Position numbers and translations under genes: made by a program | The notes under the pieces: model-generated | Database searches by the model: none | What the model was told of the DNA's origin: nothing | Seen by the model: the letters and a program-made list of their open reading frames with translations, nothing else | Part shown: piece by piece, positions 156 through 49,022 of the stretch | Layout: each line of letters starts with the position of its first letter | How positions within the stretch are numbered: the first letter of the stretch is position 1 | From: Pavona decussata | Taxonomy: Eukaryota | Direction: 5' to 3' | DNA length: 64,000 bases | Assembly: GCA_977016875.1 (NCBI GenBank) | Contig: CDRNST010000013.1 | Location: 806,001-870,000, forward strand

Positions 156-421
156 ACAACCAGTTGCAAAAATAGTGAGACACTCCAACCAAAAATCGCC
201 CTTTACCACTTCAAATTGCTGCCGCTCATAAATCTGTGAGACATGACAGTACCCCCCTCCCTCCCCTCCATACAAAGTTGTTCCTCCAAATTTTGAGCGT
301 CATCTTGCATTGCTAACAGCATTGATAAGGGGGGGAGGGGGAATGGAAAGCACGTGATCACGGCAACTTCATTTAAGGCCAAATATGTTACAGTGTCTCA
401 AGTCTTTTTGCAACTAGTTGT
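156..421. mobile_element. 266-bp non-autonomous TIR element (MITE), copy A
   Basis: TIR ACAACCAGTTGCAAAAA...TTTTTGCAACTAGTTGT; near-identical to 1805-2070 (2 differences seen); flanks CT|element|CTGAG. Confidence 0.85.
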
Positions 422-735
422 CTGAGTTAGGGGTGAACATCCAGGCCCTTTTCTCGGATGTGGAGGAACGTACAAATGATGTTGACCTAAATTTGGAAAA
501 TGCAACATCTATTTAGTACATCACTGGACATTTTAGGGTTCTAATTGGGGTGGAAGTGCGCTAAATAGGCCGTTCGAATTCCCGTCACGTCGAGAATGCG
601 TGACTTTTGCAAGATCACAATAAAACCAAAACACTTGCACTAATGTCATTTGTAGTCAATCCTAAATAGTTATAAATGGCCAACGATAAAATACAGTCAG
701 GGGTGAAAGCATTCCATGTGTTATGTACCATTTTA

Positions 736-838
736 TGACGGTCTACCATCACAACACGGTCTACCATCACTACAGTAAGAAATATGATATGTTATCTATT
801 TTTAAGTCATTCGCTATGGTAGACCGTGTAGACCGTCA
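736..838. repeat. Iteron-like direct plus inverted repeat (ACGGTCTAC twice forward, twice reverse)
   Basis: TGACGGTCTAC (736-746) pairs with GTAGACCGTCA (828-838); ACGGTCTACCAT (756-767) pairs with ATGGTAGACCGT (816-827); AT-rich spacer. Confidence 0.8.
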
Positions 839-1138
839 CTGCAAAATTCGATAGTGGTATCCTGTTGTTTCGTGAGCTTCCCTGCAACAAACCCAGTGTT
901 CAACTTTTGTGTTAAAACTGTTAAAAGAACGGACAACAGCTTCCGCGAAAGAATATCTGCTGGGAAACTTTTCTAAATCGGCGTGGCTGTAGGTGATTAA
1001 ATACACTTGCCAAACAGCTCTCGCATTCATAACTCTCTCTGATGCACCCGTGTTGCTAGCTTTTCCTCCAGCGTCTGTACTATTTTCTGTATCCGTGGTG
1101 TCCGAGTCACTGTTGCCATACTCTTTGAGAAATTCCAT
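836..1138 (-). pseudogene. Truncated HUH endonuclease (Rep-like) N-terminal domain
   Basis: VYLITYS resembles RCR motif I (gemini FLTY); WVCCREAHETTGYHY resembles the run-up to motif II (CRExHxxGxxHxH); ORF is cut inside the HUH motif. Confidence 0.7.
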
Positions 1139-1804
1139 TGCAAACAAGTTCAGAGAGTAGCAAATAACCATGTAAGTGGCAAACTCGCGTTCGCCGCACT
1201 TTAATTTACGCACGTGTAAGTTTCACCTGTCGTAATAGCAATGCAAACACGTCCTGAAAAATGTAACTAGCTTAAAGCAATTTGCTGAAATAAGCGTGTA
1301 TCACAATGTATATTCACAAAGGTCTAATTTTCAAGACTCATTTCTAAGCAACTGGTTTTCCCCTTAAAACGGCACGCGATCACAATAGAACGTGTGTTTA
1401 TGTCCCTAACAAGAACGTCAACAAACGCTTATCTCCGAAATCTAATGACGGTTTTGGCGCAACCTATGCACGTAAATAAACTTGTTTGACGTTAATGCTC
1501 AGTAAATAACTTTGAATCACGTCCTTACAGACCGCACAAGCGAAAATGGCCTTATATCACTTCTTTATTTCCAAACTTAGGCATATTTTCTGACTTGCTA
1601 ACTGAAAACAATGAAAATTGCGGCTATGACGTCATTCCAAAAATAACCCAAAATTACCTTTCTTCTTCTGCCATTTGTAATCCATGAAACATCCACCAAT
1701 AAAACCCAATTTTGCCAAAACCCCTCACAAATAGCCAAACGTAGACCACTTCCCAAAGCGATCCATAAACTAACAGAATGCTCATACAGCGTCAAAGCGC
1801 TCAG

Positions 1805-2070
1805 ACAACCAGTTGCAAAAATAGTGAGACACTCCAACCAAAAATCGCCCTTTACCACTTCAAATTGCTGCCGCTCATAAATCTGTGAGACATGACAGTA
1901 CCCCCCTCCCTCCCCTCCATACAAAGTTGTTCCTCCAAATTTTGAGCGTCATCTTGCATTGCTAACAACATTGATAAGGGGGGGAGGGGGAATGGAAAGC
2001 ACGTGATCACGGCAACTTCATTTAAGGCCAAATATGTTACAGTGTCTCAAGTCTTTTTGCAACTAGTTAT
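1805..2070. mobile_element. 266-bp MITE, copy B
   Basis: Direct copy of 156-421; flanks CTCAG|element|AG. Confidence 0.85.
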
Positions 2071-8057: not shown

Positions 8058-9534
8058 AGTGCCTATGAACTAAAAATTGTTTTCATTTAGTTTTAAAGTT
8101 TACCTTTAAAATACAGGTTTCCAAGGTTTGAGAACTGTAGACTTAAAAATGACGATTTTACAAGCCTTTAAAGTCGTGCTACTTTACTCTCAAAAATGGT
8201 ATTTGAATCGCGCGACCAAAATATCACGTGATATCAACCTCTGATGTCACTTTCTTGACAAATTCGTTCCCGCAATATGGAGGAAAAGAAGCAGCGAGGG
8301 CGGTATTGCATTGCTGGTACGCCAAACCAGCAAAGCTGCCAAAACAGATCGTTTACCCCGGGTATAGGAATGTACCAATTTCCCGCTGATCCAGCTGTGA
8401 GGGCCAAATGGGTCCAGTGTGTCCGTAGACATAGGCATGATTTCAAGAACCCAACGTCAAAATACACTTCACTCTGTGTGGCTCATTTCGAGGATTCGTG
8501 TTATGAACGCAGTTTATCCGTTCTAAGCAGCATGGAGGCCGCGGGGATGAAAGTAAAGCATTGCCTGAAAAAGGACGCGATCCCAACGAGGGATACTACT
8601 ACTCCACCAGGTCAAGAAGAACTTAGCGAGCGAAGTAAACGACAGGTGAGACAAGTTTCATGCTTCTGTTTTTACACCTCATGGTCATTGTTTCACGACC
8701 TTCTCTGCGATCGCCGTCGCCGATATTGTTGCGAGAAAGGTTTTTGTTTTGATACATGATTCTGACTTAAACATTGTAAGAATTAATTCCCAAAATGATG
8801 CTTACAAAACCAATACAGGTTTTTTAATCCTTATACATTTATAAACTTAAGCTTCACTCAAATAATCGATATTGTGAAATAACATGCATAATAATAGTTT
8901 GATTTTCCTCGTGGTTTTGGTGAAGGTGAAGGTTTATTATAGGGTATTTATTTTGAAGAAAGGACTTAGAATGTAAGTCTTACTTAGTGATACATGTACA
9001 CAATTTGCAAATACATGTATGACGTTACAAACTATTCGTTGTATTTCTTTTAGCTGAAACGTGATGCACTACAGCCTGTGTGTATCAAGCAGACCAGAAA
9101 CACGAAGGAAAGTAACATCTTCAGAGAGTAGTACATGCACCACACCACCGTGTCCCGAGAGTACAACAGTACCATCTTCTGAGGGCACTGTAGTATCATG
9201 TTCAGAGAGACAAGAGTCGCATTTCTCAACCCCCTCTCAAGGTGTAGAATGTGAAGATACCCATTCAAACGTCGATGATGAGATACCCATTAGCACACCA
9301 TCATCGTCTAATTTTGTGATGGGTATATCGACTACAGTTGCGAGCACACCACTTTCATCAGCCCAAAGCTGTAAAGGGTGTGCCAATTATCAATCAAGGT
9401 GCCACAATTTAAAGAGAGTAAATGGTCGGCTGAAATTAAAAGTGTCCAATTTGCAAATGAAAGTGTCCAGTCTGAAGAATAGCATCAAACAGATAGAACA
9501 TGTGGGTTTTGTTGAACTTTTGCCTCAGTTTTAG
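8058..9534 (+). mobile_element. Kolobok-type element 5' part with THAP-domain gene (exons ~8277-8645, ~9054-9501)
   Basis: TTAA|AGTGCC terminus; THAP signature C..C, FP, W, LC..HF, AIPT; CAG|GTGAG donor. Confidence 0.65.
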
Positions 9535-10504: not shown

Positions 10505-13500
10505 TAAATATATGTTATTCACCAGCCGGGAGGTCCGTATTGGGAAAAACTGTGCCGGAGGTCTTGGCGGCCTTGGGCAGTATCCAAGACCTCCGGCACA
10601 GTTTTTCCCAATACGGACCGACCTAGGCTGGTGAATAACATTTTTATTTCTTTCTCAAACCCAACGAAATGCTTGCAAAAAAAAAAAAAAACCTGAACAA
10701 TTTAGGTCTGTAATTATGGCAAGATCTCCGTAAACTGAACAATTTTCTAGCAGAAAACAGAGGTAATGCAAATTAAAGAAAGAGGCTTCACTGAAACGTT
10801 TTTATTTGCGTAATAATAAAGGTGATTCAAAAGGCTTCCAAACAAACTTTGAAACATTTTGTATGAATATCTGTCACGATCTGACACCTGTCAATCAGAG
10901 AGCGCGTAGGAAAAAAGCGCATGTACACTTTTGAATGAACAACAGTTCAGGTGTCAGTGTGGCAAACAAAGTGAACGATATTTTCGTCAAAAACAGTCGA
11001 ATGAGCTAACGGAAAGTATTATCCAAAGAACTTGATTAAGTTCAGTTAACTAATTAGAATGGGAATCATCGCTGATGATTATTCTTCTTTTCTTGGGTTT
11101 CCAGGACTTTGGGCATTCTTCTTTTTCACGGTGAATGTTAAATGTGAAAGAACAACCTTCAATCTTCCCGATGCAAACGCCTGAGAAAACTCCTGGCTTA
11201 TTAACATCTTTGGGAAGCTGAGTCACCGGCAAAGTGCTGCTCTCGTGGAGGCTGCTTACTGTTGATGGTTGAGTGCTTTGTTCACCGGAGTGGCTTAAAA
11301 TCAAGGACATTTTTCGCTGATGCTCAAACGACGCTGCTTTGTAAGAATCGAGGCTCCTCAGATTTCTGTGACCCCTTAGTTGAGCGACGTAATTGACGGG
11401 GACTTCTGCATCCATGAGGCGAGAAATACACTTTTTTCGAACGGAGTGGTTAGTAATATTCCCCTGTAAGCCTGCTGCTTGTGCTCCTGTTGTCATCAGT
11501 TTACCAATCTCGTTTTTGCCGAGTGGTGCCTTCATGTACCAAATGCTGTTGCCTGGTCTTCTTCGATGATTGATAGCAAAGTAAAACGGGCTGTCAGCAT
11601 TGTTTCATTTCTTCTGGACGGTGCCTTTTTTTTTGTATTTTATTAATTTTTCACCTCAGAAGTGACAGTCAAAAAATACAGACAGAATATATACTTATTT
11701 ACTGACCCCCCTCCTCCCCCTCAAATAATCACACACATACACTTAACACGACGCACAATCACACAGCTAACAACAAGCCCTTAGACAGGAATTAAGATAT
11801 TATAATATAAAATTGTGAATGCATGTTTCGAAACACCTATTTATCTTCAAAAGGGACACTTGCCCCATTTCAAAGAGTGTGCTTGCCTTTTGTTCTTCCA
11901 TGTAGAAATCTGGCATTCTAATAAGTAAACTGACTTGATTTGTCCTAAGAGAACATTAAAGAGTGGTTTTGAATTGTTGATCCTACAATAGTATATCTAT
12001 TGTTTAGCAATGAGAATAATGTGATTCAACAACAGAAAGTCCTCCTTCCTTTGCCAATCAGCAAATATTATATCTACAGCAGATAGTGATTCAACCTTGA
12101 TATTTATGTTGTTGCACCGCATTACAAGTTTCTCCCATAACGTTGCAGTGAAAAGGCAAGTCACAAATAGATGTTCAAGGGATTCGTCATTCACACCACA
12201 AAAGGAACAGGCTGAAGAATCTATTTTGCCTATTTTCTTTAAAAACGTATTTGTTACTAGATACCTGTTCAAGACGTTATATTGAAATTCTCGTGATTTT
12301 GTGTCAAGAGCGACTTTAAACAGCAAGCTATAAATTTCCTTCCATTCCAAACAGACATTATCAAAGCTTTCATTATACCTCAATTGTGCTGTTGGCAGAG
12401 TTACCAATCCAGAAATTAATTCCCTATAGATGCTTTTAGACAACGCTTTGTCGATCAAAATAGCTTGATTATTTAAAACAAGTTGAATTTGATCATGAAG
12501 AACAAATGGTCTTTTATTCACATACCCATTCATTTTCAGAGATTGCCGCCACGGTGCAGGAATAGCGTCGATAAGGGCCATCAGATCAAAAACGTCTTTC
12601 GGAGAAAAATCCAGCTGGCGTACATTGCATTGACTAATAAATTATTTACCTTCCGTGACTAAATCACGTATTCTAATTAATCCCTTACTAGCCAACCTTA
12701 TGTTGAAGACAGATTTACCATTAATACAAATGAATTTATTATTCCATATGATAGTGTTGGATATTTCTTCATGTGACATTTCAAATTCATTCTCATATGC
12801 AGCTGCGGAACATTGTGTGAAACACTTTAAACATTCCTGGTAAAAGCTTGGAAGATTAATAGGGAGTCTTTTAACTTTAAAATCACAACAGAGAATAATT
12901 TTATCCCCAACCGGTTTCAGGTAGTGTGACAAAATTGTTTTCCAAGTACAAGGTTCCTCATCTGCAAATCTCTTGCAAACCATTATTCTTTGGGTCTTAA
13001 TAATAGATTCCAAATGCGGGGCTTCCATTCCACCATCTTTAGTGTCACTAATTAGGGACGTTCATTTTACCTTGTCTTTGCCTTTCCATATAAAATCAAA
13101 GATGATCTTATTGGCCTCAGTTACAACTTCTTTGTCAATGCAAATTGAACCAGCTCGATACATTAACATCAAAATCACAAAGGTTTTTATAATCTGAATT
13201 CGTCTGATGATTGTCAGATTCCTCCATTTCCATAATTGGAGTTTTGTTTTGATGGCACCTATTATTTCTATGAAGTTAAGCTTCTGTCTCAGAGGACGGT
13301 TATACGTGAAGTACACTCCTAGAACTTTCACTGCTTCCTTAATCTCAATATTCACCGTACTTCGATCTCGAATGGGGACAATAATAGAGTTCCCCAGAAC
13401 CAAAATTTCTGTTTTATCAAAATTTATGATAAGGCCCGAGAGGTTCCCAAACTTCTTAACAGCTTCAAGGAATACGCTTAGAGATTCGTCATTCCTTAAG

Positions 13501-15230
13501 AACTCGGTTAAGTCATCTGCAAAGAGCTCAAGTTTAATTTCAGTCCCATCCACAATAATTCCTTTATTATTGTCATTTTTACGTATACTTATAGCTAAAA
13601 TTTCAAGGACAATAATGAACAGGTACCGAGAAAGTGGATCTCCTTGTCTCACACCTCTTTGTATCTCAAAAGGTCCGGTAGAGAAACCATTGTTGAGAAC
13701 ACAGCTTGAAATATTTTGGTAAAAAGTGCGTACCTACTGTATGAAGGATGGACCAAAATTAAAGGCAGCCAGGGTCCTATACAGAAAGTTTATGCCTACT
13801 GAGTCAAAGGCCTTCTGAAAATCAACTGCTATCATTTTACCATTGAGTCTGTATCGTTCTGTAATATTCGAGTACGTCATCAATTGCCCTTATCGTGTCA
13901 TTGATTGTTCTTCCCTTAACATATGCATACTGATTATGATGAATTACTTTTGGTAGAACAGACTGCAATCTCAAGGCAATAGCTTTGGATCCTATCTTGG
14001 CATCCACATTAATCAAAGAAATGGGCTTCCAATTCGAAATTTTCCGTTTATCTTTACCTTTCTTCTCGAGCAAAGTTATTACCGCTTGTTTTTGTGACTT
14101 TGATAATTCACCTCGATCATATGAGCAATTGAGGCTGTTCACAAGGAATTCACCGAAAGTTTCCCAAAAAGTGATATAAAACTCTTCTGTGAGGCCATCG
14201 TTACCTGGCCATTTATTTTTCTGAAACGTTGACTTTTGAATTTCTTGTAGTAATAAACTGGACAACGTTCGTTGTTTGTTGCCTGGGCCGTTGGATTAAA
14301 CGCTCATGTATCACCATTGCCACGGCGGGTCTTGGATCCTCTCTCTGATTTCCAAATCAGAACTTCGTTGCCTGTTTTGTTGTCTGTTTGAAGAACAATA
14401 TCCATTTGAGTTTTCTGCTTTCATCTCGGGCACAGAATCCAAATTGAAGGGCCAATAACCACCAAACTGTGTGTTGGAGCGCTTCAGGGTTTTCATCGCC
14501 AAATTCACCGGAACGAAACAACAAATCTTCTTCAGTATTGGATAGTTCTTTTGCGGCATGAGCGCGATTTCCTTTCGCTTCTTCAAAAACCAGCTGTTTC
14601 TTTTTAGAAAGAAGAACTTCCCTGGACTTAAGGAACTCTCGGTCTTTGAGAATGTTTAGTTTGGAGTTCTTGTCGTTTAGATATCACTGCAGGCTTCTTT
14701 GAAACGATTGTAGCGTGGCTGGCTCATACGCTCCGCCATCTTTCTTCTTTATCTCCATCATGAAACGACATATCGAGATGTTTAGCTCGTCCGCAGGTAT
14801 GTCCTCAATTTTTCTGGCTTCACCCACCTCAAGAACAAATCTTTTCCAAACGTGTAAGTCGTACTCTGTTTTTTTCACTGTGTTTTCCAGTCGTTGTGAT
14901 AAAATATACTTTTGCACACTCACCATTGTAAACTGGACATTTTGCTGGTTTTCTTCATGTTGCGAACCAATGTTTTCTTTAGCATTGTAATTTTCCATCT
15001 CGTCGGGATAATAAAACTGGCTTCCGCTGTGATAGCTTTTGTCTGAGTCTATGTCGAAATTAGTACTTGCCATAAAAAAAGTGAAAGGTTTACATGATAA
15101 GCTTAAATTTATGAAAAATTGCAACGAAGCAAGTGATGTAATCGACGACTCATCACGCAAGGGATACCACCCGCTGTGAGCGGGCCGGATGGGAGAATAC
15201 TGCCCGCTCACGCACTGAGAAAAAAATAAA
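10505..15230 (-). mobile_element. Crypton (tyrosine recombinase, DUF3504-like) split by Tx1
   Basis: N-part 14238-15073 (ENTVKKT...RFMMEIKKKDG..YEP) and C-part 11050-11621 (PLGKN, TNHSVR, GHRN, DSY catalytic motifs); terminal palindrome 10512-10640. Confidence 0.85.
11630..14229 (-). mobile_element. 5'-truncated L1/Tx1 retrotransposon (RT + zf-RVT) with poly(A)
   Basis: PGNDG, WKPISLIN.D.K, RQGDPLS, FADD, CSFC...ESLEHLF..C; poly-T at 11626-11634 on +; approximate TSD AAAAG(T/G)CA. Confidence 0.9.
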
Positions 15231-15349
15231 GACTGCTTGCTTACTAGAATCTCTGCATGAGCATGGATATGTGGGCAATGGTAACTCTTGAAATATTTAT
15301 TATTTTTAGTACTCAGTCATGCTGGTGATGTTTCAGGATAGGACAGACA

Positions 15350-19112: not shown

Positions 19113-21205
19113 TTAAGGCGGGGCTTAACCTAAAAAACAGGTTTTTTTTCAACAATTTTTCATGTTTAGGAGTTTGTTCTAAACCATGACAAACTATATA
19201 TTTGTAGAAAGCTCAGACCAAAGATTATGAAAAAAATACTATTGTGCCACAAAACTTTATTGTAACCTGATATCAATCAATTCTGCCACCTACTGGGCAC
19301 TACCAGGGCTTACTTGAGAAAAGATAACTCCTGCATGAATTGATCAAAATGAGTATTTTTTTACGATTTTTTAAAGAAGACAGATTGGTTATTATTTTAA
19401 GCATAGAGATTTGGAAATGTTGAAAACACACAAAATGGCGATCAATTGAATATGAGATGGAAAATCCAGCATGTGTTTCAATGCATAACTTTAAGCACAT
19501 GCACCATATAGAAACGTTCTACCCTTAAAACACCCAACTCACTGCGAACAACAAATCCTGAAAATTGCAGCTCAATGGGATAAATCTTTGTCAAGATATC
19601 TTTTCTCAAAGGCAAAAATACTGCGTTTTGTAAAAATGACATTTAAACTTACGGATAACACTAAAATACAATTTTTGAAAATTTTTTAAGCCTAAACAGT
19701 GTCCATTTTGTTCTTATTTTGTCCACAAGAGCTCCTGCCTCATAGGTGACTCCTGCTTCTCGTAGGCCTTCTTCTCGTCGGGTGTGTTAGAGCTGCTCGC
19801 CTTGACGGTGCTTTTTTTCTTTTTCTGTTGCCTGTAAATCAGACTTGCGTCGCCTTTTCTTATCTATTGCCTACAGAGACTCCACTGTGGATACTCCACC
19901 AGGAATAGACGGTAGCTGCATTGTTCTCAGTCTGCTGCTTGCTCCACTATGGTAATGGCAGACTGCTGATCCCACAGAACAGCGAACAACTTTAGCACCA
20001 TGGTGCTTATGTACAAACCATAGAGTTTACACACTCGTTGGGTTTTTTGTTGTGCCCAGAACACATCTCTTGAGAAGTTTGTCATCACTTAGTGAGACAA
20101 ACGTGGGTTTAAGGACCTCCAAAAAGACCTCAGGTAGGCAGTTGTCAATCTTGTATGTTGCATCTTGCTGCCATTTGCACCAGGAAGACTCACCTTGAGG
20201 ACAGAATCGATGCTGCTTGGGAAGGTCTTGTGCCTTCACAGAATGGTGAAGAAGGCGATAATATTCTTCCTCATTGAATACACAGCCACATCTACTTCTC
20301 TTCTTGTTGGAATGGATGTCTTCACGGTGTTTTAGCGAATACATGCATCAGGAGTTCTGGACGTCCTGTTGGATTACATGGCATTGTGGGTAGGCGGGCT
20401 CAGAAAAGTGGGCATCAACTTGCAGCTTCGCCATATTGGATTACATCGAGTGGCTTGGCTTCAGAGACCTTTCACGCAAAGAAACCCTTCCTTTGAGCAC
20501 AATTACTCGTGCAGGAATATAGAAAAACTAAATAAAAGGTATTTTAAAGGTAAGCTATTGTTTCATAACTTTTTGGCAACGTCATTCTAACGATTTTAGG
20601 CTGCAGAGTGTACTCAATTTGAGATGCATGGGATTCTTTTAAAGTTATTTTCTGGACAATAGTTCCAACTTTGCCAGGGTGGGGTGAGGGGCAATCTTTC
20701 TGTGTGGTGATGCTAAGTCTATTGTCAGGGTTTAGGTTCAAATTAGGCTCTGTTTTGGGTGTCCTGGCTATTTTGACAGCTTTTCAAATTTTTTGCAAAT
20801 TATAAATTTAAATTGTCATTAAATTGATCAACAAAGGACACACTATGCTTCTGTAAGCATATTATGCCATAATATGTTAAAGTTAAACACTTTGAGTGGA
20901 ACCAAACAAAGACTTTTAAATCTTTAAAACTACAAGTTGCACATCTGTCTGTTTATATGGGGGCCCCTTCTGGGTTTAGCCAGTTATTTATGAGAATTTT
21001 TTATTGTTCATGCTAAAATGCAACCAGTAGAAAAATTATTGATGCTTCTTGGTTGATTTCGTGCTTATTGTTCACAACTTACGAATATTTCAAGCAAAAA
21101 TGACATTTGCTTGTGTGTGAAAATGGGCACTCTCAAATCATAAATATTAGAGCTCAGTGAATCACTCACCATAAGAAGAAAAATTGAACTTAGGATTATT
21201 GGGAA

Positions 21206-22826
21206 ATGGGCTGCTACGACCTGTGAGCTTTATGGTTGTAACAATAGCTCAAGCATGTGTGACTGCCAGCCACCCTTCAAATTATTCCCGTTACCGACAG
21301 AAAAGAAGAACCCGGAATGCCGATTACAATGGGCAAAAAATGTAAGCAGAAACAGTTTGAATGGGACTCTTTGGATGCCTAACAAGGATTCAAGAGTTTG
21401 TAATCTACACTTTGTTGATGGTGAACCAACGGCTGAAAACCCAGACCGAACTTTGCAACTTGGTCACAACAAGAAAACGAGAGCCTCCAAACGCCCAACA
21501 CCAACGCCACGGGATAACTCTCTTGCAGTAAGATCCAGAAAACGAGCTAAGCTAGATACATGTAGCAATGAAATACCAGTACTTGTTCTTGACCACTCAG
21601 CCGACAACCTGGCTTGTGATGATGTTGAGTTTCAAGACCCTGAGCCCTCTACTTCTATCAGTGATTGTATTGACATAGACAGAGCATCCGTAATTCATGG
21701 CCATTGCTATGTCTATGGCTGGTATGAAATTAATGAAAATTCGAATTTTTGCATGAACACATCTTGCTTTAAAAGCAGGCAAGACAAAGATGAAAAAATT
21801 ATGGAACTTTCAGAGAAAATACCGGAGCTAAGTGAAACGTGAAGTTGCTGGAAGTTCAACTTGTGGCTAAACAGGGTAAGGGATTGAAGCATTCAGATCT
21901 GAGAAATAACCAGACTGTAAATTTACTGACTGATATCCCATCAGAGCCTGCCTTTCGCAAATTATTTGACTCTGTGAAAGGATCTATAAAAAAGTGAGAT
22001 ATTGGAGTGGCCCTAAGAAAACCTCCAGAAAAGACAGGAACTTTAGGAAAGCACCCAAAAAATTTGGACCAAAACGGGATCTTTCTCAAAAGGACGAGTT
22101 TTTTTTTTTAACACTAATGAAACTGCGTTTGGGATTCACTAATGCAGACCTTGCACAAAGATTTGGCATTTCACGCAGTACCGTATCAACTATTTTCAGC
22201 ACATGGGTCAAAATTTGGGATAGTGAACTGAAATGCCTAATATACAATCCTAGCATGGAAGTTGTAAAGAAAACACTGCCAAAGAAGTTAAAAAACCAGG
22301 ATACTGCAAGGTGCGCCATATAATAGACTGCACTAAAATTTTTATGGAGACCCCAAGCGTCCCTGTAATTGAGGCATCGACGTGGTCAGATTACAAGCAC
22401 CACAATACTGCAAAAATCCTAGTTTCAATCACTCCAAATGGGGCCTTCAACTTCATCTCAGAGGCATGGGGTGGGCGCACCTCAGATGTCCATTTGACAA
22501 GGGAATCAGAGCTTTACAACATCCTTGCGCCATATGATTCAGTAATGGCAGATCGTGAATTCACTTTTGCAGAGGATCTTTCGCTTCACAGAGCTGACCT
22601 TTTTATTCCGCCAGGGAAACGTGGACAAGAACAGTTCACGAAAGCTGATGTACAGAAAACTAAGACAATAGCTAATCTACGCATTTTTGTAGAACAGGCC
22701 ATCAGGCGGCTGAAAATGTTCCGTATAATCAAGAACGAACTGCCTATCTCTCTTATTGGTAATCTTGATAACATTATCACTGTCAGTGCAGCATTATCCA
22801 ATTTGTACAAGCCCCTTTGCAAGTAA
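21206..22826 (+). pseudogene. ISL2EU-type transposase (THAP + HTH + DDE_Tnp_4), frameshifted
   Basis: THAP (LFPLP..W..VCNLHF), LTLMKLRLG...LAQRFGIS, IIDCT, YKHHNT, WGGRTSD, MADR.F, RIFVEQAIRRLK. Confidence 0.85.
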
Positions 22827-29405: not shown

Positions 29406-30788
29406 ATGGCAAACTTTGGTAAGTAGTGCGAAAATGCATATAAGCTACGCGCAATGTCTTAAATTAATGTGATAAGCGACGAGCACACTTTCTATTGCAA
29501 GGCAAATATTCCCGCCATTACTGGGTTAGGAGTGTTAATGCATATATTTTGTAGCGTCAACGTTTTCTTTTCGCATTCTTTATGCCTATAATTATAACAG
29601 TGCATGTACTGTTCCCGAGCTAAGTGAAACGGATAATATTAAAGAGTAGATGGATTCACAACTAGAAAGCATGAGGAGCTTCAATTTGCTAAGTTTATTT
29701 ATTAAGCTTGAATTAATATTTTCCCTACTAGTACTAGCAATGCTCAGGGCAAGCGAAAAATGAGATGAATGCTCTGCTAACTTTGAAATGTATATTTAAT
29801 ATGTTAGAAATTCAAATTTCAAGTCGCTAGCTTACTTACAAGCTGTTATTGTAGTTTAATTTCAACTGATCTATACCTGCTGCATCAGTTTTAGGTTTCT
29901 TTTTAAAACACACAATGAACTTTATATTAAGTCTAAGGTCAACTCGGATCTCCTGAATCACATACCATTGATTTAAAGCATGCCTAAACAGATAACTTAA
30001 TTATCCAATACATGCTGTAAACAAATGATTTTTCATTCTTTGACATACCTATTTACTTAAAATAAGTGAACTAATTAATTAATTTCTTGCTTCTTTAACT
30101 GACTTTGCTTTCTGTAGATGCAGCAACTGAAACAGAGTCACCAGAGAGCCTACAAAAGTGGGATGATAAGCATGTCCGCTTGCTCATTGAAAACTATGGT
30201 CAATTCAAACATCTATTAAAGAAAGGAAAGACAACAAAAAAGGATGTCTTCCAGAAAATCTGTAACCACTTTAATGAAACTTCGGAGTATAAAGTAACTG
30301 TTGATCAGTGTATAAGAAAGTGGGATAAACTTGTTGCAAAGTTTAAACAAGTTGAAGATAACAATAAGCAAACAGGAAAAGCAAGACAAACGTGTAAATT
30401 TTATGACAGTCTACAAGAATGTATTGGGGAGAGCTGCAAGGTTAATCCAAGCTATACCTTTGATGTTGCACGTGTGGCCTCTTCTTCATTTGCACGTGCA
30501 GCCTCTTCTTCGTCAAGCCAAAGTGATTCAACTGCAGAATGTGATGACAATGGTGATGAGCTTGAAGATGATGAAGGTGGCAATAGTCTGGAGGGAGCAA
30601 AGAATGGAAATAAAAGAGTAAGAAAAAGAAAAAGCCACTCATCAGCGGCTGAGATGCTTACATTTTTGCAGTCCTACTCAGAGAAGAGAGAGAAGGTAGA
30701 AGAAGAAAAAATCTCCTTACTAAGAGAGAGGCAGAAAGAAAAAAAAGAACTTTTTGGCCAACTTTTGGATGTTCTAAAAAAGAAATAG
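29406..30788 (+). CDS. Harbinger Myb/SANT (trihelix-like) DNA-binding protein, exons 29406-29418 and 30118-30788
   Basis: ATGGCAAACTTTG|GTAAGT spliced to CTGTAG|AT is in frame; KW....RLLI...F..I...F...VTVDQCIRKW..L; no stops. Confidence 0.8.
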
Positions 30789-31267: not shown

Positions 31268-33239
31268 TTATGTACAAATAGTGTTCATCAGATGGGTCCT
31301 TTTTTGTCCAGCTCTTTCATCTGGTTGGTTCCCATTGTCATGAGGATCATCATCACCAAAGTCGCCATCATCAATATAGCCATCATAAAAATCATCATGG
31401 ATAATGCAAAAATTGTGAAGTACACAAGCCGATATTATCAGATGAACTGTAAGTTGTAGATCCATATGATCCAAGAAAAGGAGTTTCTTCCATCGCCCTT
31501 TCAAAAGTCCAATTGCTCTTTCCACTTTCTGCCTCAGTGATGAAAGGACTGTATTGAACCTTCTCTGTTGCCGAGTCAAATGACCGTTATCCCTGTAAGG
31601 AGTGATGAGCCATCTAGAAACAAAACTCATGCTTTAGGCCATCGCAATATTGCCCGGGGGGGGGGGGGGGTACTTCCTTATAAGAGGCTAATGGGGATGT
31701 GCCGCTGGATGGGGTCCCATTTTCACGCCTGGATGGACTAGAATGGGGTTGCATTTTCAATAGTTACTAGAATGGGGTGGCACATTTTCGGATTTTTGGG
31801 GTAAGAAAATTCTATTAAGTAGGGCTTCAAAATGGTCTCGGTTAAAAAGTTCAGAAAGTTGTTGTTTATTAAATGTAACAATCACCTCGCATTACATTCC
31901 GTTATTGAAAGTAGATGAATAAATAGAAAGTGACTTAGTTGGGAAAAGTCACTAAGATGGGGTCTATAACTGGCCACAAAATAGACTATAATGGGGCAGG
32001 GGCTCTGAGAGGCCAGCGCACATACCCAGCAAAACTGAACCCAAGTATCCCCCCCCCCCCTCCCAGGAAATTTTGTAGCTAAAGGGGCTACCCAGATCAC
32101 AGCCATTAAGTAATAGCTCTAAATTTGAAATTCAAAGAGTAAAAGTCTTTTACTGGCAAAAGCATAGCATACAGTGTATGGTAGTTCATCAACATTAAAT
32201 GTACTCCAAAAACAGTTAAGTAGGGAGTGGAGAGAACTACTATCAATAGGTCTGGTAATTCGGCAGTGGTTTTTACTGATGCACACCTCAATAATGGATA
32301 TCCTCCATCTCCAAGGAGATGAGTATCTCCAGGAAACTTATTTACTGCCGTGTGGAAGAGCTCAGAATTACGAAGCACCCTGGAGTCATGGACTGATCCA
32401 GGCCATCCAGCCAGAACATCAGTGAAAACCATATTGTTATCGCAAACAAGCTGAGGAAGTAAATAAATGGCCCCGTGAGAGGAATTCATTGTATTATCAA
32501 TTTCAATTAAATTATATTTATGAATACTTGCTTTTCTGTTACCTGCACATTCAACGAGAAGAACTTTTTTCTGTTTATATATGCATCTGGGTCATCTTCT
32601 GGGGCCCGGATCCGGATGTGAGTACCGTCAATCAAACCAATGACGCCAGGGAATCCCCCTTCGTCTTCAAAGCTGGTTCGTATGGCGAGCTTTTCATTTG
32701 CTGTAAAACAATTGTCAAAGTAACTAGTCTGCAAATTTATCTTTTACTTTTGCTCGGTGCCTGACTAAAGAAACTCACCATTAGGCCATCTGATAAATTG
32801 ACCTGAAAGATCAATTGCCGCTTGTGATACTTGCTTCAGAACCCGGTCCACGCTACTCAGTGTAATGTCGAACCTGTCTGCCACTGCTCAAGCAGGCTCT
32901 TGGTTAGCCATACACCAGAGGAAAGCTAAAACTTGTTTTGGGGGTGGGATGGCAGCTCGCTCCATTCCCAAGTGGTATCCTTCCTGTGGGCATGACGGCG
33001 CGAGTGAACAGCTCGCAAGTTTCTCTTGTCATCCTGAAGTGACCCTTAAACTCGTCAGGAAAATAGAGAGGTATCGTGCTCTCAAAGTAGTCGCGGGCTC
33101 GGTTTAAATCCCTACGCATGTAGGAGATACCCGCACTAAACAGCATTATTTCGTCGTCCTCGTCCAACATTTCGCTAATTTCGACTTCATAGTCGTCGAG
33201 CAACTCTAAGGCAAGTAAAATAGGCAAAGAGTCCGCCAT
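31268..33239 (-). pseudogene. Harbinger DDE transposase (HARBI1-like), 4 exons, disabled
   Basis: IDGTH, GWPGSVHDSRV, LLGDGGY, VERAIGLLKGRW; frameshift near 32960 and TGA at 32888-32890. Confidence 0.9.
31653..32066. mobile_element. MITE with poly-G/poly-C termini inside the Harbinger intron
   Basis: CCCGGGG...GTACTT start and AAGTATCCCC...CCCAGG end. Confidence 0.55.
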
Positions 33240-33634: not shown

Positions 33635-34240
33635 TTCACATTTGACCCAAAGACTCTCAGCTTGGTCTTGGTTGTTAGTGCCTGTCTTGCCTTTCCAATT
33701 CGTGCCTTAATGCCCTCATCAGTGCCTCCCTTCTTGCTTACAATGCTCCCAAGGTATGTGAACTTGTCCACTTCTTCAACCCACTCCCCAGCGACTGACA
33801 CACCATCGCCATGTTAGGTACCAATACGCTTTGTCTTGGTGGCATTGATCTTCAGGCCTACCTTTGCACTCTGTACCTCCAAGGCCCGTGTCTTATCCCT
33901 CATGTCCTGTATTCTGTGCGACAGTAGGGCCAGATCATTCACATTTGACCCAAAGACTCTCAGCTTGGTCTTGGTTGTTAGTGCCTTTCTTGCCTTTCCA
34001 ATTCGTGCCTTAATGCCCTCATCAGTGCCTCCCTTCTTGCTTACAATGCTCCCAAGGTATGTGAACTTGTCCACTTCTTCAACCCACTCCCCAGCGACTG
34101 ACACACCATCGCCACGTTAGGTACCAATACGCTTTGTCTTGGTGGGATTGATCTTCAGGCCTACCTTTGCACTCTGTACCTCCAAGGCCCGTGTCTTATC
34201 CCTCATATCCTGTATTCTGTGCGACAGTAGGGCCAGATCA
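33635..34240. repeat. 303-bp in-frame tandem duplication inside the RTE RT
   Basis: TTCACATTTGACCCAAAGACTC at 33635 and 33938; duplicated ORFs 33496-33801 and 33814-34104. Confidence 0.9.
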
Positions 34241-37200
34241 TTGGCAAAGTCAAGGTCTTCTAACAATGTCGTAAAGGTCCACTGAATACCTCTCTTCCTG
34301 TCAAAGGCTGTCCTCGTCACCCAATCCAGGGCGACCAGAAACAGCAAGGGAGATAGCAGGCAGCCTTGTCTTACCACAGTCCTCATATTCAGTGGTTGAT
34401 TCTTCTGCCTATTGTGTAACACCTGTGCAGAGAAACCCTCATAGAGAACTCTGATGATGGTGACTATCTTGTCAGGCATCCCGTAATGCCGCAACAACCT
34501 CCACAAAACATCTCTGCTGATACTATCGAAGGCCTTTTTGAAATCTATCAAGTTCATGTACAAGGAGGACTGCCACTCGATACTCTGCTCTACAATAATC
34601 CGCAGTGTTGCTATTTGATCTGTACAGCTTCAGCCCGCTCGGAAGCCCACCTGTTCCTCTCTCAGCCTTTCATCCAGCACAGTCTTGATGCGCCCTAGGA
34701 TCACTCTGCAAAACGCCTTACTTGCCATGTTCAGCAACATGATCCCACGCCAGTTTTTACAGCAGCTCAGATCACCTTTCTCGTGCAGCTTGATTAGCAG
34801 ACCTTTTCTCCATTCCTCTGGTATCTTCTCCTCACTCCATATCCTGTTGCAGAGGTTCAGAAGAACCTCTGATGTATCCCCTCCCACCTTTATTGCCTCT
34901 GGTGGAATATTGTCACCTCCTGCAGCCTTCCCGTTTTTTAACTTCTTTATAGCATTCTTGATTTCAATACATGTGATGTGAACTGTCTTGATGTTAAGTC
35001 TGTCACTTGGCTTCACTTCTGGTGGGTTGAGCGGCTCTTCATGGTTAAGCACTGTTTGAATGTGTGCCCTCCACCGGTGCATCTCCTCCTCTACTGTCCT
35101 GAGCAACATGCCTGCCTCGTTTCTCACTGGCTTGCACGTATTCTGAAATCTCCCACTTAGCTTTCTGGTGATCTCGTACAAAGTTTTTATGTCACCTCTC
35201 TTTCCAGCCTCCTCAGCTCTCTCAGCTTCGGATTCCACATACACCCTCCTGTCTCTCCTACACCTCCCCTTCACCTCCCTATTCAACTCTTGGTATTTTT
35301 TACCTGCCTCTCTCTTCTGGTTTCTCGTTCTGGACATGTTTGCGGTGTTTTTTGCCATCTTTCGCTGCTCAATTATCTCCCAAGTCTCGTTACTGATCCA
35401 CTCTTTCCCATTTGCCCTACCCAGCACCTGCTCGCAAGTCTCCACGTAACACTGTTCGATGTGCCTCCATTCATCATCCACTGACAGTTCCTCCTTCTCC
35501 ATCAACTGCTGGAGACCCTTTAATCTATTGTGCAGTGCTTCATCTTGCTGACCTCAAAACGCACTCGGCCACTTTCACCCTTTCTCACTTTGGCAATCCT
35601 TAGCCTGACTTTTGCCATCAACAGGTGGTGGTCTGACCCAACGTTTGCCTCGCGCATCGCACGAACGTCCTGCAGGGAGCTCCTCCATTTGTTGCTAAAT
35701 GCCAGGTGGTCGATCTGATTCACAATACCACCATCAGGAGACCTCCATGTCTGCCTGTGACACTCCTTATGGCGGAACAGCGTGCCACCAATGACCGGTT
35801 CATTTGCATGAACAGAAGTCCGCCAATCTCTCACCATTTTCATTCATCTCAGCTCTTGCTCCATGCTTACCCATCACCTCCTCCCTGCCTGTATTGTCTA
35901 TCCCCACCTTAGCATTCATATGTGCCATGACGATCTTCACATCTCTGCATGGCACCTGCTCCAAAACCATCTGTAGCTAGTCGTAGAAATCATCCTTCGC
36001 TTCCTCCATTGCCTCATTTGTTGGGGCATAGCATTGCAATATGGTAACCTGTTGCCACCTCGAGTTGAACCTGGCTCTGATCATCCTCTCAGACACTGGT
36101 TCCCATTCCAGCAGACATTGTGCAGCTTCTTTGGATACAATGAAGCCAACTCTAAAATATAAATATATTTTGTGTAAGGGGTCTTGACAAAGTGCGAGCC
36201 AGCGAATCATGCGAGCCATTTCAGTTTACCTAAATAATACATTGGTTAGCCTAAATATCTGTCTGGTTAGCCTAAATGGTACTCCAGTTAGCCTATAGTT
36301 GGCTTATGTACCTTGTGGTTAGGTTTAAATTTGGGATCAGGGATTTCTGGCTCACATGCCTTGTCCACTCACATATTGTACAAACTTGTGATCAAGCATC
36401 ACAACAGAGTTCCAAATTTGCCTTGGAAGACTTGATCCTCAGCACACATTCCTGGATAATGTCGGTTACGCAGATGCACATGTATCTTAAGTTAATATTT
36501 ACAGCTATATACAGTTGATTAATGTAGATAAGCAGTCAAGTATACCATTGTTAAGATTTTGGAACATGGAAGGACTAGTAAACGAGCATATTACGAGCTA
36601 CAGGGAATGCGTTCACATCCACTATCTTATGCCAGTGAGCCAGTGGTGTGTTTAGACGAGGTTAGGGGACCTTGACATGTTTACTTCCACACTTTAGCTC
36701 ACCAGAAAGCGTGTACGATAACAACTACTTCTGATGTACGCAAAGTCAATAAATAATTGAAATTTCTTAAGCTCACTACTTCCTTGACATTAATACTTCC
36801 GGTATTGAACTAACAGTCAACATCAATGAAATGATTGAGTATTAATTGTGTAATCGATGGGTGATCAATGAGTACTAGATAAGAAATCGATAGGCCACAA
36901 AATTAGAAGCCAGCAATTAGCTGTTGATTGTATTTTTTAGCGATTGATATAAACTCGTGGCTACACAAACCATACCAAATCGAAAATAAGGAAATACATT
37001 TATTTTTTTATTTACATGTGTAGGTCGAAACAATGGCCTTAGAGGGGAAACGTTTACTCCGAGAGAAAACTTGTCAATTGGTCAATGATTACCCATCAAT
37101 TATCAATGACTAATCAGTCGATTTATCATTGGTGTTATTTTTTCTCTCATTTAAGTCAGGCGAGAGGGGTTTTCTGTTGACCAATCACAAATTAAATACA

Positions 37201-46407: not shown

Positions 46408-48425
46408 TGTCCAGTTATGAGGCCGTTGAACTGGTCTCAGGTCTTAATAACGTCTTAGTGAAGCTTGTTGAGCACAGAAAATCCTAGGCTTATCGAAACA
46501 ATCTAAACCTAAGCGAACACGTTTTTCTCACAACACGTGCTAGGAATCTTGGGAGATTACCCAAACGTCTCTCTTGGCTTAACGATTAGCGAAAGCTACA
46601 CACCTCCCCAACAGGGGGAATCCTCTGTTCAAATCACGAAAAAACAAAAATGTCATTGATATAGAAACAATCTAGTCCGGTCCAATAACAAACAGAACAT
46701 GACAAATCCTTAAAGTTCTTAATGTCTTAATTTCCTCAATACTAATCCACTGACTCTTGAGACTCCTTGACGGGAAATTCGTGGTCTTGGGTACAATCAA
46801 CACCAACTTGTGAATCGGTCTCTTTAAGCGCAGAACTTCATGTGTCCTTCGACCACGACTGTCTAGAAGATATGTTCCGATAGCTACGGTCACCTTTCGG
46901 ATGCAGCCATCATCACTGGGAAGTGTCTCGTCAACTCGAGCAAGCTTCCACTGATTCCTTGGGAGGTCATCATCTCTCACTAGAACTATGTTACCAATCT
47001 TGAGGTTTCGTTGTGGTTTGATCCATTTCTGACGTGTTTGCAGCGTTTGCAAGAATTCCCTCCTCCATCTATTCCAAAATTCGTTTGCTAGATGTTGCAC
47101 CCTTCGCTATCTCTTTCTTGAGTACAAGTCCGCCCTTTGAAAAACACCAGGAGGCGGCATCAACACCTTCACTTTCATTGTAAGGAGATGATTCGGCGTT
47201 AATGGTTCAGGGCAATCTGGCTACATGTTGTAGTGAGTGGTCTAGAGTTGACAATGTTCTGCACCTCCTTCATGAGCATACGGAAACTTTCATCATCTAA
47301 CTGAGGACCGGACTCTTCAAGTAGTGCTGCCAGAACACTTCGCACCGTTCTTATTTGCCTTTCCCATGTGCCGCCCATATGGCTTGTGGATGGCACGTTC
47401 ATCTTCATTTCAAACCAGTCACAGTTTTCCTTAAGAAGGTGATTCTTCACCCTCTCCTGATCTATCTCTTCAAGCGCTTCAGCTAACTCACGTCTTGCTC
47501 CAACAAAGTTAGTGCCACGATCGGACCTGATCTGACATACTGGACCTCGTTCAGCCAAGAAGTGGCAAAGTGCATTTATGTACGAATCGGTCTCCAGTGA
47601 GTTTGACGTCTCGATATGGACTGCACGGGAAGACATACATGTAAATAACACGCCATGACGCTTGACTTCTTTACGACCTTCCTTGATGCTGAATGGACCA
47701 AAATAGTCAACTGCACTGTAGGTAAACGGAGGAACTGCTTCGTTTCAATCTGTGGCGAGGTCTGCCATCTTCTGTAGTTGACCAGGTGTTCTAAGCTTTC
47801 GACAAATGGTGCACTTTGATACGTAGCTGCCTACTGCGGATGTACCACCGATTATCCAATATCCCTGCTGGCGGGATTCGTTGTGGGTCATTCCACTGCC
47901 TTGGTGCCTTGTAGCATGGTGGCAATCTTGGATTATCAGCTCAGTAACATGGGATCCTCTTGGCAATATAACTGGGTGTTTGATGTCTTCTGGCCTGTTA
48001 GCTCTTCTAAGGAGGCCGCCAACTCGCAGGATTGCTTCGGCGTCAAGATACGGGTCTAGATGATGAATACAACTGGTTTTCTTCAGACTTGTGTCCCGCT
48101 GTTGGGCAGCTCCTCTATCCATGAATTCTCCATCAACATTCAGTGACCGCACTGGTCTAATTTCTTCTTCAAAGTGTTCGTGCTGGACACTACGGATAAT
48201 CTCTCGCTCTGCTTGGGCTAGGGTGTCCACATCTGGACTTTGTCGGTGCGCACTGGGAGCTTCAGCAAGCTTGCATTTTGGGGTGCACAAGGACTCTTTG
48301 CTCTTTCTTTCCTTTAAGCGATACTTCAGTAATAAACAATGCCACTGCATTCTTGGCTCTGAACCAGTTAGAGAAGGTGTCCAACCTACTACTCTCAAAA
48401 TTTTGTTATCTTCTGCTAGATCTTG
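46408..48425 (-). mobile_element. BEL/Pao integrase region with PPT and 3' LTR
   Basis: LRVGG, HPVILP, H..H/C..C, LFTCMSSRAVHIE, SDRGTNFVGA, GGTWER, FWNRWRREFL; PPT GGGGAGG then TG at 46600; lower LTR end approximate. Confidence 0.88.
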
Positions 48426-48429
48426 CAAG

Positions 48430-49022
48430 TGTATATATTGACGAGAAAGACCTTGAACTTATCACTGTAATCAGTAAAGGGCAGTTTGGTCGTGTACATA
48501 AGGCCTTTTGGAAAGGTCTTAAAGTTGCAGTTAAGGAGATTCCAAAGGGCTATGGTGATCCAGACCTCGCCAAGGTTGACATCTGCAGGTAAGGAAATAT
48601 TGAGCTATAAAAGCTGTAAACCATCTGCCATACAAATAAGATGAAATCATCCAAATTCACTGTCCATGACAGGTGTGTCTCACTATAGATAGTCAACTTA
48701 CACTGTGAAATACTTTTTGGACGAATTATTTAATTAAGTGTGAAATTCGATCATTGAGTGATAAAGCATTATCTAAAGCCCTGGCAAAACGTTCTAAAAC
48801 CCTGAACAAATGGTGATTATTGTTGATGATAGTTGGAACGAGCGCTCTCGTTTGACCAGCAACCATTACTAGTGACGTGCTGAAAACTAAGGCACTGTTC
48901 ATCAATGTCATCCTTCTTTTTCACAGGCGCTTAAGACATCCAAACGTTGTGATGCTGTTTGGGCACACAATGACAGACAACGACATACTCATCGTTATGA
49001 GTTATATCAAAGGTTGCAATCT
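48430..49022 (+). pseudogene. TKL-type protein kinase N-lobe fragment, 2 exons
   Basis: ISKGQFGRVHKAFWKG..VAVKEI; AG|GTAAGG donor; CACAG acceptor then LRHPNVV. Confidence 0.75.

Follow-up and report, generated by a model that had tools for sequence, protein, structure and literature searches.

The closest described layout is that of KolobokP (Kojima and Bao 2022, PMC9587614), an element of about 4-4.7 kb whose long terminal direct repeats carry inverted repeats of their own. In the available portion of its description, KolobokP combines a DDE transposase with a second gene on the opposite strand, and it occurs as solo repeats, (repeat-core)n-repeat multimers and repeat-less junctions. As it makes these forms without a Rep, arrays alone need no replication. 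The same portion assigns to it a Kolobok transposase, a His-Me finger nuclease and 450/660-bp repeats, and contains no report from cnidarians.

A geminivirus-like transposon of the fungus Tuber melanosporum (Liu et al. 2011, PMC3198968) carries Rep-like and transposase genes in one inverted-repeat element and was recently amplified, according to the part of the account that is available. E1-like HUH-SF3 Reps are described, in the accessible sections of two papers, from the RepE1 cressviruses of sea anemones (PMC11071296), where they are paired with a capsid gene, and from DENSOV_HM in Hydra data (PMC3198968); both are also represented by endogenised fragments. The word "transposase" does not occur in the RepE1 cressvirus paper (PMC11071296). 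On a much larger scale, Teratorn (PMC10175614) is presented in the available text as a 180-kb herpesvirus fused with piggyBac and retaining virion genes, whose concatemer is proposed to be cut between transposon copies. Replitrons (Craig 2023, PMC10288648) of plants, algae and protists are characterised, in the available part of that work, by a Y1 HUH protein related to CRESS Reps, with an HUQ motif and no helicase, by 6-bp terminal direct repeats, and by a Rep that is itself the transposase. A 2026 review (PMC13565253) cites KolobokP and, in its available sections, no Tc1-plus-Rep element.

The element reported here, from the genome of the coral Pavona decussata, shares with KolobokP the long direct repeats with their own inverted repeats, the solos and the multimers. 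It differs in having a Tc1-type DD34E transposase (with DDE_3/Tc3 matches instead of a Kolobok type), a TA duplication, CA...TG instead of RR...YY ends, repeats of 150-280 bp, an HUH-SF3 initiator in place of the His-Me finger nuclease, and a retained central palindrome. Likened by description, the Tuber element also joins a Rep and a transposase, but it is fungal and has a geminivirus-type Rep, interrupted frames and 37-bp inverted repeats, with no obvious duplication, long direct repeats or arrays in the text available. Compared in the same way with the accessible descriptions of the RepE1 cressviruses and DENSOV_HM, the coral element has an E1-like Rep as they do, but a transposase and no capsid gene. 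Teratorn, as far as its account is available, is a large-scale analogue in which a viral replicon is joined to a DDE transposon, whereas the present element has 4 kb, two genes and no capsid. In the open full-text literature, outside subscription journals, Repbase and supplements, no Tc1-plus-Rep element with long direct repeats was found described. The group of composite transposons is real and apparently undescribed, and a variant of the known virus-transposon and direct-repeat hybrids.

The window, that is, the whole stretch of DNA analysed, comprises 64,000 nt (assembly GCA_977016875.1, contig CDRNST010000013.1, positions 806,001 to 870,000 of the forward strand). Judged from sequence comparison, positions 157-2069 are a 1,913-bp, doubly deleted, non-autonomous copy of a young 4.4-kb composite DNA transposon. 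This copy is a dead derivative, and it delimits the cis parts of the element. Its features are as follows.

155-156: left TA target-site duplication, in the context CTA (from the sequence, the family flanks and empty paralogous sites).
157-420, plus strand: terminal direct repeat of 264 bp on the left, bounded by its own 16-bp inverted repeats (157-172, 405-420); it occurs solo too.
421-581, plus strand: leader upstream of the lost transposase gene, together with the inner flank TCTGAG.
581/584: first deletion junction, where 1,254 bp are lost, including the entire Tc1-type DD34E transposase frame (about 360 aa, plus strand in full copies).
584-851: central island, flanked by the two convergent genes and present in all internally deleted variants of the family examined.
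584-604: short hairpin GTCACG...CGTGAC, within the central island.
736-838: palindrome of four ACGGTCTAC repeats round an AT-rich spacer (forward at 738-746 and 756-764, reverse complement at 819-827 and 828-836).
850-851: second deletion junction, with 2-bp microhomology; the 1,227 bp of Rep that are gone begin with the second His of HUH and include the SF3 helicase.
850-1138, minus strand: HUH-SF3 Rep remnant, with its likely start ATG at 1136-1138, motif I at 986-1006 and a cut motif II at 851-889.
1139-1805, minus strand: non-coding DNA upstream of Rep, with the inner flank CTCAGA at its end (1800-1805).
1806-2069, plus strand: terminal direct repeat of 264 bp on the right, bounded by inverted repeats (1806-1821, 2054-2069); its last base deviates from the family norm.
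2070-2071: right TA target-site duplication, in the context TAG.

A preliminary description of this DNA had correctly recognised a minus-strand frame with VYLITYS (986-1006) and CCREAHETTGYHY (851-889), broken before the second His of HYH, as well as the inverted array of four ACGGTCTAC copies, which forms two head-to-head pairs at 738-836, and the hairpin at 584-604. The open frame with these Rep motifs spans 836-1222. The proposed termini AGGCC and GGCCT are both internal (567-571, not 568, and 1548-1552), as copies align past them to 157 and 2069. The 264-bp direct repeats, which are one substitution apart in this copy, and the deletion at 581/584 had been overlooked. Aligning copies, as that description had advised, gave these ends, and empty paralogous sites, located for one of 33 insertions tested, show a 2-bp duplication.

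Other parts of the window contain frames of various kinds. At 2100-2480, a poly-T run is followed by a minus-strand frame that we take to be a LINE endonuclease fragment. Frames at 11997-14295 and 34117-35553 presumably encode LINE reverse transcriptases, and those at 8259-8759 and 21144-21842 are assumed to be THAP-like. Likewise, their motifs lead us to regard 11050-11604 and 14684-15316 as tyrosine-recombinase-like, 22254-22826, 30099-30788 and 32106-32591 as Harbinger-like, and 47199-48458 as a BEL/Pao integrase frame.

Full copies of the element are 4.4 kb long; between their two repeats lie, in this order, a plus-strand frame of about 360 aa, the central island and, on the minus strand, a frame of about 490 aa. 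They bear out the proposal that the window holds a copy, shortened by internal deletion, of a multi-copy element of an animal, with an HUH Rep distinct from Helitron RepHel. The plus-strand frame encodes a Tc1-type transposase (Pfam DDE_3, E 1.8e-14; HTH_Tnp_Tc3_2) with the catalytic triad D161-D258-E293 and a D-E spacing of 34; of 21 families, all have the first and the second D and 20 have the E. The DD34E triad and the Tc3-type HTH typical of Tc1/mariner elements are present in full copies, and the gene is deleted from the window copy.

The second gene is an HUH-SF3 Rep, predicted by structure modelling to fold like AAV Rep68 and papillomavirus E1. It has a single conserved YxxK, an HYH motif and a fused SF3 helicase, so the full-length copies with motif III and SF3 helicase sought by the preliminary description exist. 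Residues H98, H100, Y141, K144, Walker A K351, Walker B D388 and R458 are each 98-100% conserved among 96 homologues. At E ≤0.01, these 96 aligned sequences match REP_ORF2-G2P (58), PPV_E1_C (32) and Parvo_NS1 (24). One full Rep gave sub-threshold Pfam matches only, and the 96-sequence profile gave nothing significant against PDB sequences; a fold search was required. The model (pLDDT 86) has its best matches in AAV2 Rep68 (E 6.5e-12, both domains) and papillomavirus E1. The suggested check of the HUH fold came out in two ways: the window fragment matches no Pfam family, and the full-length model matches Rep68. A capsid gene, which had also been proposed as a search target, was not found, the only other long frame in full copies and metagenome loci being the transposase. 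Moreover, neither viral contigs, in two scans, nor phage records yielded a relative.

Insertion occurs at TA, with CTAG preferred, between inverted repeats. Among 42 outer flanks of the family, 40 start with TA and 38 go on with G. The element ends are CA...TG, and the inner flanks of the terminal repeats are TCTGAG and CTCAGA, of which TCAGA/TCTGA recurs in other families. Inner junctions that lack a repeat retain CATG or CTG in three cases in the family of the window copy, and family F8 supplies four further footprints at such junctions, one of them CAG. Footprints of the CA/TG type are expected from the staggered cuts of Tc1-type transposases. Those found here show that the transposase also cuts the inner, non-TA ends, and they rule out, in both families, the idea that such ends cannot be cut. 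Given inverted-repeat ends, a TA duplication and a DD34E transposase, the element is integrated by the DDE enzyme and not by Rep. In all of these features, including the Tc3-type HTH and the footprints, the element resembles Tc1/mariner (IS630-Tc1-mariner) transposons. These, however, consist of one transposase gene flanked by a single pair of inverted repeats, whereas the present element adds a second gene, has its ends doubled, possesses an internal cis element and forms arrays.

A genome search gave at least 66 matches at 96-100% identity, with 40 of 207 candidates scored, and a search for the end pattern gave 90 left ends (19 exact with TA) and 17 outer right ends. Copies exist as a solo repeat, as a monomer and as (repeat-core)n-repeat arrays. 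The 24 places from the end-pattern search comprise eight solo repeats, six monomers, two dimers, five longer arrays, two truncated copies and one monomer with an excised right repeat. Every array is uniform for one deletion type, and units inside one array diverge by 0-0.4% (few units compared). The left and right repeats have private variants in common in four elements (L034, L078, L090, L091), and no fixed difference between left and right repeats was seen. Separately, a copy on contig C96 stops inside the AT-rich spacer at TTAA, and the 10 kb beyond hold no remainder; this break is probably a later insertion. Family F2 has 340 left-end matches, mostly in arrays of one derivative that lost Rep and retained the transposase, and several small contigs begin or lie within F2 arrays. 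A related element (L139:3475-3993 and 8271-8856) is flanked on both sides by the roughly 27-bp tandem repeat in which it sits.

A chimera illustrates the exchange of terminal repeats between families. In it, a 257-bp F8 repeat replaces the repeat of the window family exactly between CTCAGA and TCTGAG, on both sides and in the same orientation. It occurs with two different cores and accounts for 59 junctions on five contigs (C63, C112, C218, C271, C318), with TA at the outer ends examined; the loci are L036, L196-L198 and L231-L234, and one array has at least 33 units. With F8 repeats at both sides, the chimera can only have arisen by doubling followed by cuts at ends of the inner type. Joints matching it also appear in sequencing runs X6 and X16. 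The private shared variants and the chimera fit a putative path from circle to multimer; they can also stem from events within an integrated array, namely gene conversion or unequal crossover.

Deletions remove both genes yet spare the central palindrome. Nine independent deleted variants of the window family all retain 584-851, and none of 16 deletions touches the ACGGTCTAC palindrome (P ~4e-5, with uniform placement assumed and some deletions of shared lineage). In F8, a family selected by its ends rather than by the island, one of 24 deletions reaches the wider core and none its inner part, in a sample covering 16 of about 35 F8 places. The amplified derivative L080 (C72) keeps the island, inverted. 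Exceptions are an F8 copy without the left repeat cluster (L208) and a single F2 copy without the core altogether (L228). Two further F8 copies (L200, L207) have the whole core inverted relative to the terminal repeats.

The ACGGTCTAC palindrome folds at -23.8 kcal/mol (z -6.9), and none of 200 shuffles is as good. Central regions were obtained from 36 of 37 loci, of which 30 are non-redundant. Head-to-head repeat clusters score ≥4.5 in 11 of these 30, against none of 60 shuffles, and 19 score below this value; at a cut-off of 4.0, the counts are 15 of 30 and two of 60. The cluster spacers are 41-66 bp long and AT-rich, and the repeat sequence is family-specific. CGTGAC was located in the central region of nine of the 30 non-redundant families. 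For a CRESS-type stem-loop origin, the strong palindrome is there, but inspection by eye of the central regions and their spacers revealed no shared, conserved nonanucleotide. Head-to-head clusters round an AT-rich spacer recall the origins of polyoma- and papillomaviruses more than the CRESS stem-loop. The ACGGTCTAC palindrome is a predicted Rep-binding origin.

The gene pair is not confined to one family. In the same genome, other families with Reps 42-55% and transposases 34-46% identical have the same convergent layout, direct repeats of 150-280 bp and CTA/TAG outer flanks. A transposase match is present in 19 of 20 regions examined, and both genes appear in this arrangement in families with as little as 37% Rep identity. 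The metagenome loci number 79; the convergent transposase is seen in 29 of the 31 for which 1 kb or more of downstream sequence is available. Rep and transposase distances are correlated (Spearman 0.67, p 0.0005; 21 non-redundant pairs). Rep homologues number 598 at 90% clustering, and 893 clusters were obtained at 50% with E <1e-30; those under named organisms, with annotations as uncharacterised or NS1-like, come from Acropora, Porites and Actinostola, which points to a coral host.

In one public run, the monomer assembles into one closed contig of 4,151 nt with uniform depth, although a collapsed chromosomal array would look alike, and terminal overlaps are present in four of 79 metagenome contigs, a signal that circle and array give alike. 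In the set of runs X1-X20, 18 contain at least half of the element's sampled words; these runs bear six organism labels or are metagenomes. The near-identical element under six labels may reflect close kinship or horizontal transfer. In the metatranscriptome run X15, a 907-nt contig over the Rep-upstream region and terminal repeat (mapping to L034:6002-6654 plus 2525-2778) has a depth of 740, compared with at most about 61 elsewhere; this peak may stem from an abundant RNA or from an artefact of word counting.

Unit lengths cluster near 1650, 2050, 2440, 2850, 3700, 4090 and 4500 bp, approximately even multiples of 204 bp, and independent deletions converge on 1647-1658 and 2046-2060. The lengths of 23 derivative units fit a 408-410 bp period (R 0.72, p 0.0003) in a post hoc fit to hand-listed values from partly shared lineages. 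The sizes of 39 deletions fit about 214 and 410 bp, again post hoc, hand-listed and without a Rep-less transposon control, and full units alone fit 376 bp, not 408. In a length test stated beforehand, an amplified F2 derivative of 2856-2877 bp (one deletion, eight contigs) fits, units of 2749 (F2) and 3537 bp (F9) miss, and a 2497-bp unit contains an unaligned insert; a search of family F5 for this test gave the already known full copy only. At a guess, a step of about 204/408 bp would reflect nucleosome spacing, as expected if selection acted on circles of chromatin. The KolobokP repeats (450, 660) and those described here (~260) differ by similar steps.

The best explanation, and a reasonably probable one, is that Rep amplifies repeat-plus-core circles into multimers from the central palindrome, and that parts of these multimers are inserted by the transposase. 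When the two terminal repeats recombine, a circle of one repeat plus core would be freed and a solo repeat left behind. Rep, acting in cis or in trans, would then bind the head-to-head 9-bp repeats, open the AT-rich spacer, nick, and drive replication into head-to-tail multimers. From such a multimer, the transposase could cut any left end plus any downstream right end and paste the piece at a new TA, which would remake both terminal repeats from one template. The circular form would have the layout of an ambisense Rep-encoding virus, with the transposase in the place of the capsid gene.

The main alternative, rather unlikely as judged here, dispenses with the free replicon. Rep would nick or re-fire the palindrome of an integrated element, sister exchange or local re-replication between terminal repeats would build arrays, and the transposase would cut pieces from these chromosomal arrays. 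Arrays, solos, core retention, footprints and the chimera are covered equally well in this manner, the homogeneity of each array for one deletion type agrees with it, and the available portion of the KolobokP report offers a precedent in its proposal for the nuclease. Nevertheless, an intact SF3 helicase exceeds the needs of a nicking role, and monomers at separate loci have private variants common to both repeats. Furthermore, the tight convergence of unit lengths (1647-1658 and 2046-2060) fits selection on a replicating unit.

It is improbable that the element is a capsid-less satellite of a RepE1-type circular DNA virus, with a circle that replicates, a helper that packages it, a transposase serving only for residency, and size classes set by packaging. 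The E1-like Rep resembles that of the anemone RepE1 cressviruses in the accessible part of their description, many derivatives are about half of the full unit, and near-identical sequence is found in runs under six organism labels. However, viral contigs and phage records lack a relative, and size classes measuring 0.4, 0.6 and 0.7 of a unit mismatch a single capsid size.

The reading of the preliminary description, in which a Replitron-like HUH transposon or endogenous CRESS relic is excised and inserted by Rep itself, is largely refuted and very improbable. Its HUH Rep stands; its assignment of mobility to Rep does not, given the inverted repeats, the TA duplication and the DD34E transposase of full copies. 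Tandem arrays are typical of rolling-circle elements, and the Y1 HUH motifs are intact, but the ends, the duplication and the Tc1-like footprints, together with the constant DD34E partner, contradict this reading. Replitrons, in the available part of their description, lack a helicase and mostly lack duplications; the HUH domain is common to both, and all other tested features differ. The HYH motif (not HUQ), fused helicase, 264-bp repeats in place of short ones, transposase partner and TA duplication speak against the suggested likeness. A Helitron would have a Y2 Rep with a superfamily 1B helicase and no target duplication, whereas the present element has one YxxK, an SF3 fold and a TA duplication. 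The HUH endonuclease fused to an SF3 helicase is shared with CRESS and RepE1 viruses, and their capsid gene is absent. The element is not a Replitron, a Helitron or a capsid-bearing virus.

Finally, that Rep is passive viral cargo caught between two miniature elements, with arrays made by host recombination, is hardly credible: the layout is composite and KolobokP-like arrays require no Rep (as far as that account is available), but the catalytic residues are conserved down to 37% identity, Rep is congruent with the transposase, and the core is retained with family-specific palindromes.

With amplification of circles by Rep as the preferred reading, a broader proposition has about an even chance of being right: that these are widespread, undescribed, self-replicating animal transposons, each a capsid-less Rep replicon in which a Tc1 transposase took the place of the capsid gene. 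They would exist as nuclear minichromosome circles in steps of about 204/408 bp, be amplified by Rep and pasted as multimers, and have a terminal cassette and an origin exchangeable between families.

Cut-and-paste transposons normally gain copies via host repair or replication timing. If the proposed mechanism is true, an element in which a DDE transposase is joined by a virus-type replication initiator would represent a third solution beside Helitrons and Polintons. It would also provide a compact living example of the passage from small DNA virus to transposon, with the capsid swapped for a transposase. The question left by KolobokP, namely the upkeep of long terminal direct repeats and multimers, becomes testable, as both a putative cis origin and the replication enzyme are open to assay here. 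The element builds arrays of tens of kb in the coral genome, which bears on genome assembly and structural variation, and it likewise bears on whether "parvovirus NS1" or "CRESS" matches in coral data should be read as infections.
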